A stretch of 15,005 nucleotides of DNA from Pseudobdellovibrionaceae bacterium. GTDB taxonomy: Bacteria; Bdellovibrionota; Bdellovibrionia; Bdellovibrionales; Bdellovibrionaceae. Location: contig JBFWYS010000030.1 in the NCBI GenBank assembly GCA_050186175.1, forward strand, positions 1 to 15,005, written 5' to 3'. Below, one piece after another: positions 5,572-8,567 of this stretch. The position numbers were made by a program, and so were the translations under genes. Position 1 is the stretch's first letter. Every line of letters starts with the position of its first letter. The notes beneath the pieces were generated by a model. It was not told the origin of the DNA. It searched no databases and saw only the letters and a list, made by a program, of their open reading frames with translations.

Positions 5572-6726
5572 TTAACTCTTGTATTCTATCCATTTTTGGA
5601 CAATTTCTTGTTGAAATTTTTTATTCAGCTCAACAAACCCATTTCCCTGATATTTTTCAAGACAAGACTGAAAAATTCCTGCTAAAAGAAGTCCCCTTGT
5701 AAGCTGAAAATCTTTAAGATCAATCTCTTCATAATTTCCATCAAATGGATAAGGAAACCCGCTATTAACAAGACACAAACCTTCAATCCAAAGATCTTCA
5801 TGACAATTAGATCGTGGTTCGATTTTTTTTCTTAAAGCCACAGCATCAAACTCTCTGTCCGAAGATGAGACACTAACCAAAAAATTCGGTCTTTTTAAAT
5901 ATTTATGCAAATGTTTTGGTATACTACAAGATCCTGTACACCCAATAATAGCATCACAAGTTGGTAACAAAGAAATTAATTCATTTTCATAATTATCAAT
6001 AGATAAATAATATTTATTATCTATAGTTCTAATATTGAATCTATTCCTTAAAGTTTTTTTCATGCAGGAACCGATAACACCATTTCCTATAACAAGAATA
6101 TCTTTAATCTGTGACTCTCTTTTATAAATGTGTTTTTTCAACCTATTTACACACAAATCAATAACTAATGGTGTTTCATAAATCAATTTCGCCTTACTTC
6201 TAGCCACATTAATTATAGGAAAGTTGATTTTTTCACTATTTAATTTATTAAATCCAGAGCTTGTTTGTTCGATACCAGAAAAACTATATTTATTAATATA
6301 TTTCTTGTTAAATAAAGAAAGTAAACTTCCCCCTTCATCTAAGAGAATAATTTTATTAAATTCTGTGTTTTTTTTATCTAGAAAAGATTGTATTTCTAAT
6401 TCAAGGTTATTTTGAAAATAATCGTCAAAAGCTAAATGGCTATCATAAAAGTTTGAAAAGCGAGATACTTCAACTCCATCTTCTTTCAGGAGTTTAAGCG
6501 TTTCAGGTCTAGTTGAATAACATTTTCCCATCACAAACAAGTTTTCTGGCCGCAATCCAAATTCAAAAAGGAGAGAAAACAGTGAATGAGTTGTCAAAAA
6601 AAGATGTTGAACGCAAATAAGTAAGACTTTTGAAAGATCCAAAACTTTATTACTTTTAAAACTATTTGCAAACCCCTCCAATACAGGCAAATGTAAATTT
6701 TTTTCTAATAAGATAGAATCATTCAT
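5572..6726 (-). CDS. highly divergent S-adenosyl-L-homocysteine hydrolase (AdoHcyase)-fold NAD-binding protein with non-canonical active-site residues
   Basis: SAHH landmarks are recognisable in the correct order. These are the catalytic-domain helix (CVQHLFLTTHSLFSLLFEFG vs CLHMTVETAVLIETL), the DDGGD loop (LLDEGGSL), EETTTG (EQTSSG) and INVNDSVTKSK (INVARSKAK). The Rossmann GxGxxG (VIGNGVIGS), the TTTGN region (IGCTGSC), HFD (SSDREFD) and the EGRLVNLG..GHP segment (EGLCLVNSGFPYP) are also present. The two conserved histidines are missing. Its start overlaps the MFS stop by 8 nt (tATGAATGA). TAA stop. Confidence 0.6.
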   Translation of the reverse strand: MNDSILLEKNLHLPVLEGFANSFKSNKVLDLSKVLLICVQHLFLTTHSLFSLLFEFGLRPENLFVMGKCYSTRPETLKLLKEDGVEVSRFSNFYDSHLAFDDYFQNNLELEIQSFLDKKNTEFNKIILLDEGGSLLSLFNKKYINKYSFSGIEQTSSGFNKLNSEKINFPIINVARSKAKLIYETPLVIDLCVNRLKKHIYKRESQIKDILVIGNGVIGSCMKKTLRNRFNIRTIDNKYYLSIDNYENELISLLPTCDAIIGCTGSCSIPKHLHKYLKRPNFLVSVSSSDREFDAVALRKKIEPRSNCHEDLWIEGLCLVNSGFPYPFDGNYEEIDLKDFQLTRGLLLAGIFQSCLEKYQGNGFVELNKKFQQEIVQKWIEYKS

Positions 6727-7927
6727 AGTATGAGTTAATGTTGTGAGATTTTTCTTTATTCTTGCGTGGTCTCTGATAAGTCAAAAATGAGCAAATTAGT
6801 AATAAAATAATAAACGTTGGAAAATTAAAAATATTCATTTTTGACAAAATTGGACCAAGAAATTCAGCCAAACTTAGCAAAGCTTCAAGAATTCCAAATA
6901 AAAATCCTTCTTCGTGAATTTTTGTATGTTTTATAAATCCAGCATAAATCAATGGAAGAGCAAAAGAGCTTATCCCTGCAAATGGTAAATAGTAACTGAA
7001 ATTAGAGAGAGAGGCAGAGGAAAAGTATTTAGATGAAATATAGCCAAATACAAAAAGAAGCGCGCAAATAAGATATGTTGTAAAAAGATTTTTCAAATTT
7101 GGAACAAACCTAACAAAAAGATGCACGATATTGCCTATAAAAATACCAACTCCTAGCAAAAAGAAAGAGTTTGAGAGAGTTTCCTTTTGAAAATGAGAAT
7201 CAAGATAATACTGCATCAAATGATAAGATATACCCAAAAACAAAAAAGATAAGAAAATTCTTATCTTTGTCTTTCCTAATCTCTTAATCGAGCTAATCAT
7301 GCTAAGCTCTTCAGAATGATTCTTGTCTTTCTTTATCTTTAAAACAAAAAAACTAGAAAAAAAACTAACAATCCATGTTAAAATCGCTAATTTAAAAACA
7401 TAAGAATTGTATATCTTATAAGAAGAACAAATAATAACCCAGGGTAGAGCTTGTACGGCATAGGACTCTGCAATGATTCTGACGTGGGAGCGCCCATGGT
7501 TTTCACCATGTTCATTTTGGTACCCTTCTTTCTTTCCTTTGTAGTGTTTAGAAAGTTTAAAGTAACTTACATCACAGTAAGCTGCTCTTGCAACAGCTGT
7601 TACATTACAAAATATTCCGTCTATTATTACAGCTGGCAATATCTGATTCATGTAAAGTAAAAGAATTGAAAGAGAAGAGATTAAAACAGTGAACGCAAGA
7701 ACGCTTTTACGACAATGCTTATCAGAAAGATGTCCTGTTACAATTGAGAAGACTACTTGCAAACCAATCCACAACGTAGCATAATTTTCTCCAACCTCAC
7801 CTATATCGCTAAAAACAAGGAGAAAGCACAGTTTAAAGACTTCCTTTGAAGCGATACAAAGCAAGACAATGAAACTGTACAACTTAGTTCTACTCTCCAA
7901 GGGAAAGACGGTAGATTCTATTGTCAT
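6719..7927 (-). CDS. major facilitator superfamily (MFS) transporter, about 12 TM
   Basis: 402-aa polytopic protein with MFS motif A after TM2 (GHLSDKHCRKSVL). The ATG start overlaps the methyltransferase end by 38 nt. An alternative TTG (codon 16, 7882..7880) would remove the overlap, so the start is uncertain. TGA stop. Confidence 0.8.
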   Translation of the reverse strand: MTIESTVFPLESRTKLYSFIVLLCIASKEVFKLCFLLVFSDIGEVGENYATLWIGLQVVFSIVTGHLSDKHCRKSVLAFTVLISSLSILLLYMNQILPAVIIDGIFCNVTAVARAAYCDVSYFKLSKHYKGKKEGYQNEHGENHGRSHVRIIAESYAVQALPWVIICSSYKIYNSYVFKLAILTWIVSFFSSFFVLKIKKDKNHSEELSMISSIKRLGKTKIRIFLSFLFLGISYHLMQYYLDSHFQKETLSNSFFLLGVGIFIGNIVHLFVRFVPNLKNLFTTYLICALLFVFGYISSKYFSSASLSNFSYYLPFAGISSFALPLIYAGFIKHTKIHEEGFLFGILEALLSLAEFLGPILSKMNIFNFPTFIILLLICSFLTYQRPRKNKEKSHNINSYYE

Positions 7928-8567
7928 AATCCTGTTTTGTGTTAGTTATTTTCCATAATTCCCATTTATACCCCAAGTCTGAAAAAATTGCTTCTAAAGA
8001 AGGGGTGTCCCCCTTGCTTGAAAAGGCAATGAAAATTTCTGTTGATAAATTAGAATAGTCTGGTATCTGACCCAAAAACTTTCTGATTGACTGAAAACCT
8101 GGGTCATAAAAAGCCCTTTCCAAAGGATCTTTTATTTCGATTTCATCGCTATGAAATGGCATATTAAATACGATAATATCAAAAATTTGGGGTGGGACTT
8201 GATTAAAACAGTCGCTCTGATAAATCATAGCTTTTTTTTCTGGAAAATCATTTATCTTCCTGTTTTCTATTGCATTCTGAATTGCAAATGGATTTATATC
8301 TGCCTGAACAACTTTTTTTGCACCATTTTTTAAAGCATACAATCCTACAATACCAGGACCACATCCCATGTCACAGACAGTCTTATCTCTAAATTTTTTC
8401 TGCAAAGCCTTCAAAACAAAGCTTGTAGTTCTAAACTTCTCACTTGGATACACATGTGGATGAATTGAAAGATCAACACCTTCAATCTTTACAGTATATG
8501 GAGACTCTAAATGAGCAAGCTCTTCATAGATTTCATCAGCAGGTAACTTGTAATAAGTTGATTTCAT
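7890..8567 (-). CDS. class I SAM-dependent methyltransferase, small MTS domain (HemK2/Mtq2/RsmD-like amino-group methyltransferase) with an NMPF variant of the NPP[YF] motif
   Basis: Motif I is VCDMGCGPGIVGL and post-I is VVQADIN. Motif IV FDIIVFNMPFH corresponds to (D/N)PP(Y/F). The N-terminal HPHVYPSEKFRTTSFVLKAL resembles the VYEPxxDSFxLxDAL of Mtq2/N6AMT1-type enzymes. AGGAG sits 10 nt upstream of the ATG. TAG stop. Confidence 0.85.
   Translation of the reverse strand: MKSTYYKLPADEIYEELAHLESPYTVKIEGVDLSIHPHVYPSEKFRTTSFVLKALQKKFRDKTVCDMGCGPGIVGLYALKNGAKKVVQADINPFAIQNAIENRKINDFPEKKAMIYQSDCFNQVPPQIFDIIVFNMPFHSDEIEIKDPLERAFYDPGFQSIRKFLGQIPDYSNLSTEIFIAFSSKGDTPSLEAIFSDLGYKWELWKITNTKQDYDNRIYRLSLGE

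Follow-up and report, generated by a model that had tools for sequence, protein, structure and literature searches.

The window, by which we mean the whole stretch of 15,005 nt analysed here and which is assigned to an environmental chlamydia, carries on its minus strand three tightly packed genes for a SAM-dependent methyltransferase (MTase), an MFS permease and a divergent relative of SAH hydrolase (SAHH), and the conserved core of this locus is the MTase/SAHH-like pair, which recurs as neighbours and as fusions in many host-dependent microbes. We consider it most likely, with moderate confidence, that the presumably co-expressed MTase/SAHH-like module would cleave SAH or a related nucleoside in an NAD-dependent reaction that is tied to methylation and transport. 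The original prediction had taken all three genes as one module; the link between the MTase and the SAHH-like gene stands, in neighbours and fusions beyond the window, and the place of the MFS gene as a conserved member does not, as the window MFS shares a contig with an SAHH-like gene elsewhere only in an 87%-identical relative.

All three genes lie on the minus strand: the gene for the MTS-type SAM-dependent N-methyltransferase (7890..8567, 225 aa) comes first, that for the MFS permease of a rare family (6719..7927, 402 aa) is in the middle, and that for the divergent SAH-hydrolase-superfamily protein (5572..6726, 384 aa) is last. A Shine-Dalgarno-like AGGAG (8578..8582, minus strand), read from the sequence, lies 10 nt upstream of the MTase ATG, and an AT-rich intergenic leader of 241 nt (8568..8808, minus strand), the presumed promoter region, separates the operon from a half-MFS-like ORF upstream (8809..9339, minus strand, 176 aa, six hydrophobic segments). 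The MTase stop codon TAG reads at 7892-7890 and the MFS ATG at 7927-7925, and if this ATG is the start, the two genes overlap by 38 nt (7890..7927, minus strand). An alternative in-frame TTG at 7882-7880 (codon 16), with GGAGAG 10 nt upstream, would leave no overlap and a 7-nt gap instead. The N-terminal extension from the ATG at 7927 is kept in the 87%-identical homologue, but there the overlapping MTase frame also limits sequence change. At the second junction the MFS stop TGA (6721-6719) and the SAHH-like ATG (6726-6724) form the 8-nt overlap ATGAATGA (6719..6726, minus strand), a translational-coupling signature, and a start at 6726 is consistent with the nearly invariant M1 of the SAHH-like family. 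A gene for a DUF985/Cupin_5 protein (5068..5556, plus strand) converges on the operon, with 15 nt between its stop at 5556 and that of the SAHH-like ORF at 5572. The packing first proposed for these ORFs, with overlaps of 38 nt or zero and of 8 nt and the 15-nt cupin spacing, was confirmed from the sequence. The same gene arrangement is present in three other, independently assembled samples and hence is not an assembly accident. As in operons generally, the genes share one strand, their stop and start codons overlap or abut, and no terminator-like site was found by a terminator scan on the minus strand inside 5572-8567; the overlapping codons fit co-expression of the three genes. Promoter-like matches at 8736-8708 and 8656-8628 were not more frequent than in shuffled sequence, and both the promoter and the terminator scans were uninformative. 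An Rfam search of the leader (8568..8808) gave no match, and no SAM or SAH riboswitch was found. Among the PADLOC defence models the sole match was a generic MTase-domain match to mad2; the MFS, SAHH-like and cupin proteins matched no model.

The first gene had been described as an MTS-domain amino-group methyltransferase with an NMPF motif, and this description is borne out. Its product matches Pfam MTS at 64.6 bits (cut-off 23; 1.1e-17), with motif I as DMGCGPG and a putative motif IV, FNMPFH (N135-M-P137-F), in which the Asn is nearly invariant, P137 is invariant and Met replaces the first Pro of (N/D)PP(Y/F), the motif to which the target nitrogen binds; the form seen here is similar to the NPPFH of RsmC and RlmG. 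NCBIfam equivalog matches to named enzymes (PrmC, PrmA, RsmC, RlmG, Mtq2) were all far below their cut-offs, the best NCBIfam match was PRK14968.1-3 (HemK2-like; 101 bits, cut-off 162), and the best PDB sequence match was the uncharacterised MJ0882. The AF2 model (pLDDT 94.4) gave as top Foldseek matches Asc-Orf2 carbamoyl N-MTase, GenN, PrmA, HEMK2/N6AMT1, METTL5 and RlmG/RsmC. Because these best structural matches are all N-methyltransferases, the predicted structure supports an N-methyltransferase of the MTS/HemK2 type. At least 120 homologues at 50-99% identity make up a tight family.

The last gene encodes a member of a large unnamed family, which comprises about 1,300 clusters at 50% identity, occurs in Chlamydiae, Rickettsiales, CPR bacteria, DPANN archaea and some further groups, and for which our searches found no Pfam or NCBIfam model and no paper; its members are currently annotated as ‘hypothetical protein’ or as unqualified ‘S-adenosylhomocysteine hydrolase’. 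The AdoHcyase fold assigned to the 384-aa protein is correct, since the family profile matched SAHH in the PDB at E 1.6e-18, Foldseek matched the SAHH fold with prob 1.0, and both domains, for substrate binding and for NAD (Rossmann), are present. The canonical catalytic set was not retained in full, with four of eight catalytic positions, two adenine contacts and the C-terminal tail differing. The protein had no match to Pfam AdoHcyase or AdoHcyase_NAD, phmmer against the PDB returned nothing, only the family profile reaches SAHH, and its score against TIGR00936 (15.6 bits, E 0.005; cut-off 497.6) was, as with every curated SAHH model, below the cut-off. The best PDB matches of the family, by sequence profile as well as by Foldseek, are AHCYL1/2. 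Residues were compared with a human AHCY reference sequence, and the motif correspondences agree with an independent AHCYL alignment. Residues 214-219 hold an invariant GxGxxG motif (G214-x-G216-x-x-G219), and D236 (97% conserved) is likely the acidic residue that follows the second strand of the NAD fold; because the profile aligns D236 with AHCY D245 and not with the NAD-ribose ligand E243, its role as NAD-ribose ligand is a putative one. Kept positions (SAHH-like = AHCY) are H41=H55, D130/E131=D130/D131, E153=E155, K180=K186 and E184=D190, and in a set of 69 proteins that covers all clades the conservation of the retained catalytic and NAD positions is 95-100%. From the catalytic set H55, D131, E156, N181, K186, D190, N191 and H301, four are replaced (E156 by Q154, N181 by A175, N191 by S/T185 and H301 by S288), and the adenine contacts T57 and E59 are replaced by F43 (L or M elsewhere in the family) and T/S45. 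The profile alignment stops at AHCY residue 311 and the protein ends at 384, lacking the C-terminal tail (K426/Y430) that completes the NAD site of the neighbouring subunit; family members are mostly 350-420 aa long, whereas human AHCY has 432 aa and the SAHH chains in the PDB have about 405-500 aa. The family has its own invariant polar residues (Q40, K68, C69, Y70, S71, D101, R176, S285-D290, E292, R299) and its own invariant motifs (GKCYS, SxSSSDxEF, GFPxxF), and its signature residues are identical in every neighbourhood type and fusion context. The protein is a soluble one of 384 aa and should be easy to express.

The co-occurrence of MTase and SAHH-like genes in other genomes, which had been suggested as a check, was found. 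Of 76 genome loci, 17 have an MTS methyltransferase gene less than 2 kb from the SAHH-like gene, and at 15 the two lie within 0-200 nt; a reciprocal survey seeded with the MTase found an SAHH-like gene next door in six of eight informative metagenome loci, and more than 20 contigs, matched by size, were common to the two homologue lists. MTS or FkbM methyltransferases accounted for 18 of 127 immediate neighbours of SAHH-like genes, compared with class-I methyltransferases at 2 of 127 control ORFs four to five genes away, an excess of about nine-fold (Fisher p 2.4e-4, indicative only because the loci are phylogenetically non-independent). Moreover, methyltransferases of at least two and possibly three families are fused to SAHH-like proteins, and these fusions come from independent assemblies: in one the MTS domain aligns to residues 24-204 of the window MTase (E 2e-16), two separate proteins carry Methyltransf_11/25, and in a third type the N-terminal region is weakly methyltransferase-like (Pfam E about 2e-3, which is under the cut-offs). 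Other fusions join the SAHH-like protein to a hybrid histidine kinase or to a cNMP-binding domain, the latter in a Mycobacterium basiliense protein mislabelled after the cAMP-regulated acetyltransferase Pat. Methyltransferases make up only about 15% of the immediate neighbours, and whole clades adjoin NUDIX and deoxyribosyltransferase-like genes, histidine kinases (as in Rickettsiales) or other membrane proteins instead; MazG- and thymidylate-synthase-like genes also recur. EamA is the commonest neighbour (27 loci), and MFS families lie beside other clades. An SDR gene of cluster c3 is frequent in the clade of the window, being present in 16 loci, and SDR genes account for 8 of 127 immediate neighbours; the cupin ORF (Cupin_5/DUF985 at 5e-36) belongs to a cluster (c13) found near SAHH-like genes in seven loci, the window included and some of them gammaproteobacterial. 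That genome compaction packed three genes without shared function is very improbable, and for the MTase/SAHH-like pair effectively refuted: the MFS gene is lineage-specific, the locus is a rearrangement hot spot and the promoter and terminator scans give no guidance, but the pair recurs in many genomes and as fusions, methyltransferases are enriched about nine-fold next door, and MFS homologues independently adjoin SAHH-like or methyltransferase genes.

The transporter slot is interchangeable: most relatives have an EamA/DMT gene, sometimes fused to an FkbM methyltransferase, and an MFS gene between the core genes occurs only in the lineage of the window. In a sister genome no gene separates the MTase from the SAHH-like gene, and the MFS gives way to a convergent EamA-FkbM gene. 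As first predicted, the gene between the two in the window encodes a 12-TM MFS protein, matching MFS_1 above the cut-off (38.2 bits, cut-off 33.4) and showing 12 hydrophobic segments when the threshold is relaxed and 9 when it is strict. Only eight homologues were found among 5.8 billion proteins; all eight keep a motif-A-like loop (G-x-L-S-D-K-x-x-R-K), and a 22-aa His/Lys-rich loop insertion is lineage-specific. Homologues adjoin an SAHH-like gene (L159) or other SAM methyltransferase genes (L158, L160/161), and the protein is distantly related (22-27% identity, E 1e-6) to MFS genes of another cluster (c9) that lie beside other SAHH-like genes. As a Tet-family tetracycline or drug efflux protein it scored at best 29 bits with the NCBIfam Tet models (cut-offs 475-870). 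The upstream ORF 8809..9339 had been read as a truncated MFS paralog and a sign that the module was duplicated or rearranged. It matches MFS_1 (1.2e-8), and a full-length homologue (172 aa, 38.5% identity) lies near another SAHH-like gene (L005), but its similarity to the operon MFS is non-specific (BLASTP E 7.5); it is therefore not a copy of that gene, gives no evidence of duplication, and that reading was rejected.

Gene structure, folds, retained and lost residues, linkage and fusions are observations; for substrate, reaction and transport direction we infer the following scheme. The MTase would N-methylate an acceptor with imported SAM and release SAH. With NAD+ bound, the SAHH-like enzyme would oxidise the ribose 3'-OH, the counterpart of K186 acting as base with support from that of D190, and the 5' substituent would then be lost by β-elimination through the counterparts of H55 and D131. 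Cleavage of SAH, or of a closely related 5'-substituted nucleoside, would relieve product inhibition and allow the nucleoside to be salvaged, and the membrane transporter may move the acceptor or product, or SAM/SAH or breakdown products. In the lineage of the window the transporter is a rare MFS, inserted between the two core genes and predicted to be translationally coupled to both. Because partner methyltransferases of unrelated families have only SAM and SAH in common, SAM/SAH is the probable shared ligand. Several observations count against SAH cleavage: the four catalytic replacements, the altered adenine contacts, the absent tail and the scores far under curated SAHH models; the best PDB matches AHCYL1/2, which are not known to be catalytically active; a family member in Mycobacterium basiliense, a genus presumably equipped with canonical SAHH; a SAM/SAH antiporter that would already clear SAH; the negative riboswitch result; and the modest share of methyltransferases (about 15%) among immediate neighbours, with whole clades beside other genes.

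Methylation requires continuous SAH removal. The reliance of chlamydiae on transport for SAM/SAH homeostasis, invoked at the outset, is sound: metK, sahH and MTAN are missing in most of them, and these rely on an antiporter of the DMT family that exchanges SAM for SAH; such an antiporter is also thought to be the sole route in many other reduced-genome symbionts without SAM synthetase, SAH hydrolase and MTA/SAH nucleosidase (PMC3104491). The SAHH fold, half of the catalytic machinery and the genomic and physical coupling to methyltransferases and transporters make the family a candidate for an overlooked methyl-cycle step. Tentatively, the SAH-disposal enzyme that is missing from host-dependent microbes which import SAM (environmental Chlamydiae, Rickettsiales, CPR, DPANN) could be found in this branch. 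It would be a non-canonical hydrolase or lyase of SAH whose active site has been remodelled and whose NAD-capping tail is absent, working beside SAM/SAH or metabolite transporters and, because of the fusions, proposed to be a physical partner of methyltransferases. In a bolder version, a new reaction on SAM or SAH could feed adenosine and homocysteine or methionine salvage.

It is possible, though rather doubtful, that the substrate of the NAD-dependent 3'-oxidation is not SAH but, for instance, a nucleoside or nucleotide that is modified or has a base other than adenine. The MTase would N-methylate this compound and, in related loci, the SDR would reduce it, with the transporter importing the precursor or exporting the product of a pathway that makes or salvages a small molecule. 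In antibiotic pathways, enzymes homologous to SAHH take other nucleosides as substrates, one of them being AgmF of angustmycin biosynthesis. The replaced adenine contacts T57 and E59, together with H301, agree with such a substrate, as do the small-molecule N-methyltransferases (Asc-Orf2, GenN) among the closest folds of the MTase, the frequent SDR neighbour, the NUDIX and nucleoside-deoxyribosyltransferase-like genes on the flanks of another clade, and the recurring MazG- and thymidylate-synthase-like genes. However, partner methyltransferases from at least three unrelated families (MTS, Methyltransf_11/25, FkbM) are hard to square with one acceptor, the window holds no core biosynthetic genes, and signature residues that stay the same in all neighbourhood types and fusions indicate a ligand common to every context rather than a pathway-specific one.

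A non-catalytic role like that of animal AHCYL/IRBIT, in which the protein would have lost hydrolase activity, bind SAH, adenosine or NAD and serve methyltransferases, transporters and kinases as a regulatory or sensor subunit, is unlikely. AHCYL1/2 are the best matches by sequence and by fold, H301, E156 and N181 are replaced, and the fusions to a hybrid histidine kinase and a cNMP-binding domain, like the histidine kinases adjacent in Rickettsiales, resemble sensor architectures. Yet hardly any variation occurs at the catalytic lysine, at its acidic partner or at H55 and D131, and with the full NAD motif and many invariant polar residues they form the pattern of an active site; moreover, an enzyme fused to a cNMP-binding domain is a normal regulatory arrangement, and stoichiometric methyltransferase fusions fit product channelling equally well. 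With SAH or a related nucleoside as substrate, the pairing of MTase and SAHH-like genes may reveal how host-dependent microbes dispose of the methylation by-product SAH; a different substrate could mean new nucleoside chemistry on an old scaffold, and either outcome would correct present annotations of the family.

Compared with canonical SAHH (AhcY/SahH; AdoHcyase + AdoHcyase_NAD, TIGR00936), the family shares GxGxxG, the motifs DDGG, E-x-T-x-x-G and xST, and counterparts of H55, D131, E155, K186 and D190 (as Glu), but is only 15-19% identical, is about 48 residues shorter and has invariant motifs of its own. AHCYL1/AHCYL2 (IRBIT) show an SAHH fold recruited for binding and regulation; these eukaryotic proteins have about 50% identity to AHCY, regulatory extensions at the N terminus and no known hydrolase activity, whereas the SAHH-like family branches independently and much more deeply, among prokaryotes, and has a conserved pocket of its own. 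SAMHT (CTL843, DMT/EamA family), the chlamydial/rickettsial antiporter that is the known route for SAM uptake and SAH removal in SAM-auxotrophic chlamydiae (PMC3104491), resembles in family and size the EamA transporter that is the commonest SAHH-like neighbour; the window has no EamA gene, and an MFS gene takes that place. In concept, the SAHH homologues and SAM-recycling genes of natural-product clusters are similar, with an SAHH-type enzyme beside pathway methyltransferases or 3'-oxidation on other nucleosides. Those homologues (the SAHH-like dehydratase AgmF; sahH/metK sub-clusters) are close relatives of canonical SAHH, whereas the present family is far more divergent and occurs in reduced symbiont genomes outside any recognisable biosynthetic cluster. 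Finally, archaeal S-inosyl-L-homocysteine hydrolase (7r3a; family profile match E 4e-9) shows altered base specificity within the SAHH superfamily, but it is a close canonical relative, full length and with a complete catalytic set, and is no nearer to the SAHH-like family than ordinary SAHHs are.

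The operon consists of three minus-strand ORFs, encoding the methyltransferase (MTase, 7890..8567, 225 aa), the MFS transporter (6719..7927, 402 aa) and the SAHH-like protein (5572..6726, 384 aa), a divergent relative of S-adenosylhomocysteine (SAH) hydrolase, and the layout in the original prediction, that is its coordinates, overlaps and convergent cupin, was correct as read from the sequence. An AGGAG is located 10 nt 5′ of the MTase ATG, and the MTase stop codon TAG (7892-7890) lies 38 nt inside the MFS ORF if the MFS start is the ATG at 7927; if the in-frame TTG at 7882 is used instead, which has GGAGAG 10 nt upstream, the overlap is gone. 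The MFS stop and the SAHH-like start are contained in ATGAATGA (6719-6726), and a plus-strand DUF985/Cupin_5 gene (5068..5556) is convergent with the operon, with 15 nt between stops. Identical gene order was assembled in three further samples, and the three operon genes (GC 0.29-0.34) are AT-richer than their flanks (0.36-0.43). Promoter and terminator scans gave counts not above those of shuffled sequence, and Rfam scans found no riboswitch or other RNA element in the window, only an irrelevant sub-threshold viral pseudoknot, and only tRNAs, with no riboswitch, in nine non-chlamydial loci. A reading as anti-phage defence was rejected, PADLOC giving a generic MTase-domain match only. Around the operon region, two membrane-protein ORFs of 183/184 aa, at 1321-1875 (+) and 11048-11599 (−), lie one on either side, ∼9 kb apart and inverted relative to each other; they are distantly paralogous (23% identity, E 1e-6). 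Two ankyrin-repeat ORFs, of a kind typical of intracellular bacteria, are present at 11716-12459 and 12502-12876 (−). Moreover, a beta-helix/pectin-lyase-like protein and a 346-aa protein without Pfam match (3968-5038 and 2873-3913, +) are syntenic with the module in the sister-genome locus L077 and in several further chlamydial loci.

The 225-aa MTase belongs to the MTS-domain methyltransferases (64.6 bits), with DMGCGPG as motif I and FNMPFH as motif IV; no named equivalog model scored it above its cut-off. For its predicted structure (pLDDT 94.4) the best structural matches were N-methyltransferases only (Asc-Orf2 carbamoyl N-MTase, GenN, PrmA, HEMK2/N6AMT1, METTL5, RlmG/RsmC and TrmM), and its best PDB sequence match was the uncharacterised MJ0882. 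The original prediction had asked whether MTase and SAHH-like genes co-occur elsewhere, and the neighbourhoods show that they do: among 76 genome loci an MTS gene was present within 2 kb of the SAHH-like gene in 17, the distance being 200 nt or less in 15 of them. Of 80 loci from a metagenome scan seeded with the MTase, 10 held true family members, and the remainder, generic methyltransferases, were ignored; the SAHH-like gene was adjacent in six of the ten, absent in two, and two loci were too short to judge. In a Pfam census of 127 immediate neighbours we counted MTS 13 times, FkbM 5, SDR 8, MFS 8 and EamA 6 times, compared with two class-I methyltransferases and no MTS among 127 control ORFs four to five genes off, an enrichment of methyltransferases with a Fisher p of 2.4e-4 for loci that are not independent.

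The strongest evidence for the methyltransferase link is given by fusion proteins, which were sought among the best 150 family representatives. The SAHH-like domain is joined to an MTS domain in P0272, where the latter aligns to residues 24-204 of the window MTase (E 2e-16), to Methyltransf_11/23/25 in P0273/P0387 and to Methyltransf_11/25 in P0323, and in P0326/P0388 the N-terminal region resembles a methyltransferase only weakly (Pfam E about 2e-3, below cut-offs). Other partners are HisKA-HATPase-REC in a hybrid histidine kinase (P0331, 778 aa) and a cNMP-binding domain in two proteins of Mycobacterium basiliense (P0384/P0390, 492/505 aa). The annotation of the Mycobacterium basiliense fusion, ‘Acetyltransferase Pat’, is apparently mistaken. 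The family signature residues are intact in all fusions found. The main argument for SAH, or a similarly universal nucleoside, as the predicted ligand is that SAM and SAH are all that these unrelated methyltransferase families have in common and that the pocket does not vary between contexts. Chance juxtaposition of the core pair is effectively excluded by the recurrence of the pair and by the fusions.

The SAHH-like family is large, with 469 homologues at 38-46% identity in a word-indexed search and 1,314 cluster representatives at E<=1e-30 in an exhaustive profile search; some JGI entries are labelled ‘S-adenosylhomocysteine hydrolase’ and NCBI entries mostly ‘hypothetical protein’. Our literature searches on the bacterial family returned animal AHCYL papers and general reviews only, and no publication on the family was found. 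The 76 loci are chiefly from Chlamydiae (Simkaniaceae, Rhabdochlamydiaceae, Parachlamydiales and Anoxychlamydiales), and the rest are from Rickettsiales, CPR bacteria, DPANN archaea and some Gammaproteobacteria, several of the bin labels being doubtful. L001 (JAGQLJ010000056.1), a contig of 2.5 kb that matches the window at 99% identity, is binned as ‘Candidatus Dojkabacteria’ (CPR), and L060 and L061 are among loci labelled as Rickettsia typhi or Chlamydia trachomatis MAGs with the gene content of environmental relatives. Such loci are probably misbinned or mislabelled, so the range of taxa in which the family seems to occur should be read with caution.

When flanking ORFs were clustered and combined with a neighbour-joining tree, sub-clades with distinct neighbourhoods were obtained. 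In the clade of the window, the MTS methyltransferase and the SAHH-like gene are usually accompanied by an SDR and by an EamA transporter, the latter forming one polypeptide with an FkbM methyltransferase in six loci plus L077. These polypeptides (L006, L013, L016, L021, L049, L059 and L077, e.g. L077 6634-8595) are ∼650-700 aa long, comprise a 10-TM EamA/DMT transporter and a C-terminal FkbM-family SAM methyltransferase, and adjoin the MTase/SAHH-like pair. A second clade combines NUDIX, deoxyribosyltransferase-like and SAHH-like genes with an MFS distantly related to that of the window; in its loci (L008, L019, L022, L026, L039, L065 and L068, at ∼7300-10300 in each) the NUDIX hydrolase and the nucleoside-2-deoxyribosyltransferase-like gene always precede the SAHH-like gene and the convergent MFS follows it, and genes resembling MazG and thymidylate synthase are found repeatedly in the vicinity. 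Further clades have EamA or another MFS with paired small membrane proteins. In Rickettsiales the SAHH-like neighbour is a histidine kinase, of the hybrid type in L048, L058, L060 and L074. A DUF985/Cupin_5 gene occurs near SAHH-like genes in seven loci, including the window, gammaproteobacterial loci and, e.g., L008, L021, L033, L035 and L041, sometimes directly downstream on the same strand, and may belong to the same functional neighbourhood.

The transporter fared differently from the core pair. The 402-aa protein is an MFS permease by Pfam, with 12 hydrophobic segments, and its family is rare (8 homologues found); a Tet-type drug efflux identity was rejected by score. Alignment of the family revealed a lineage-restricted, His/Lys-rich 22-aa loop insertion, SYFKLSKHYKGKKEGYQNEHGENH, at residues about 120-142, rich in Lys, His, Glu and Gly, which is found only in the window MFS and its 87% homologue and is absent from the other six members. 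Distant homologues adjoin the SAHH-like gene in L159 and lie 5 kb from one in L158, and further ones adjoin other SAM methyltransferases (L158, L160/161). As a module member, however, the MFS is not conserved, since in L077 the MTase is followed directly by the SAHH-like gene and then by the convergent EamA-FkbM, whereas in the window the MFS is inserted between the core genes and the cupin stands in place of EamA-FkbM; the transporter of the module is thus interchangeable. The window also has an extra 2.4 kb upstream, comprising the half-MFS ORF (8809-9339, minus, 176 aa, six segments) and a 400-aa membrane protein. The half-MFS ORF had been read as a truncated MFS paralog suggesting that the module was duplicated or rearranged. 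Duplication is rejected because the ORF does not specifically resemble the operon MFS (E 7.5) and a homologue of matching length occurs in another chlamydial genome (172 aa, L005 10256-10774, 38.5% identity, within 1.2 kb of a SAHH-like gene). Instead of being a pseudogene, the ORF may encode a working half-transporter. The L077 ORF upstream of the MTase is unrelated to it, being the 93% orthologue of window 11048-11599. Flanking proteins of window and L077 are 93% identical, compared with 84% for the MTase and only 61% (70% nucleotide) for the SAHH-like protein, and the module is AT-richer than its flanks in both (window 5572-8567, L077 4700-8595). These differences point to a local hot spot for rearrangement, rapid divergence or recombination, in which the SAHH-like gene has changed far more quickly than the genes around it.

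For the 384-aa protein, single-sequence searches were uninformative (Pfam gave only a spurious HemN_C, and phmmer against PDB zero matches), and its identification required a family profile together with structure prediction. The profile was aligned to human AHCY, and the motif correspondences matched an independent AHCYL alignment. H41 (H55 in AHCY), D130/E131 (D130/D131), E153 (E155), K180 (K186), E184 (D190), the pair D290/E292 (D303/E305) and GxGxxG are kept, whereas E156, N181, N191 and H301 of AHCY are changed to Q154, A175, S/T185 and S288, and the adenine-contact positions T57 and E59 to F43 (L or M in other members) and T/S45. The protein is ∼48 residues shorter, the C-terminal tail missing. 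Across 69 proteins representing all clades, conservation of the kept residues and of the new motifs GKCYS, SxSSSDxEF and GFPxxF is 91-100%. The folds and the coupling of MTase with SAHH-like protein in the original interpretation stand; a conserved MFS and a duplication do not, and SAH hydrolysis, with four catalytic positions changed, is not demonstrated.

The most likely explanation, to which we give about an even chance, is a methylation module with predicted cleavage of SAH, or a closely related 5′-substituted nucleoside, and transport, in organisms usually without a canonical methyl cycle. The N-methyltransferase would make SAH, the SAHH-like enzyme would cleave it, or the related nucleoside, by NAD-dependent chemistry, and the transporter would handle the acceptor or product, or SAM/SAH-related metabolites. 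That the enzyme acts on a different nucleoside within a small-molecule pathway, on which the altered adenine contacts and the constant pocket beside unrelated methyltransferases bear from opposite sides, is rather unlikely. A non-catalytic, AHCYL-like binding or sensor subunit is improbable, the histidine-kinase and cNMP-binding fusions being set here against the kept catalytic residues. Judged by the established SAHH mechanism, the NAD-dependent 3′-oxidation and elimination half of the reaction is plausibly retained, and the water-addition step and base recognition appear remodelled; we class the proteins as an unnamed, deeply branching lineage within the SAHH superfamily, whose characteristic partners are methyltransferases and transporters.
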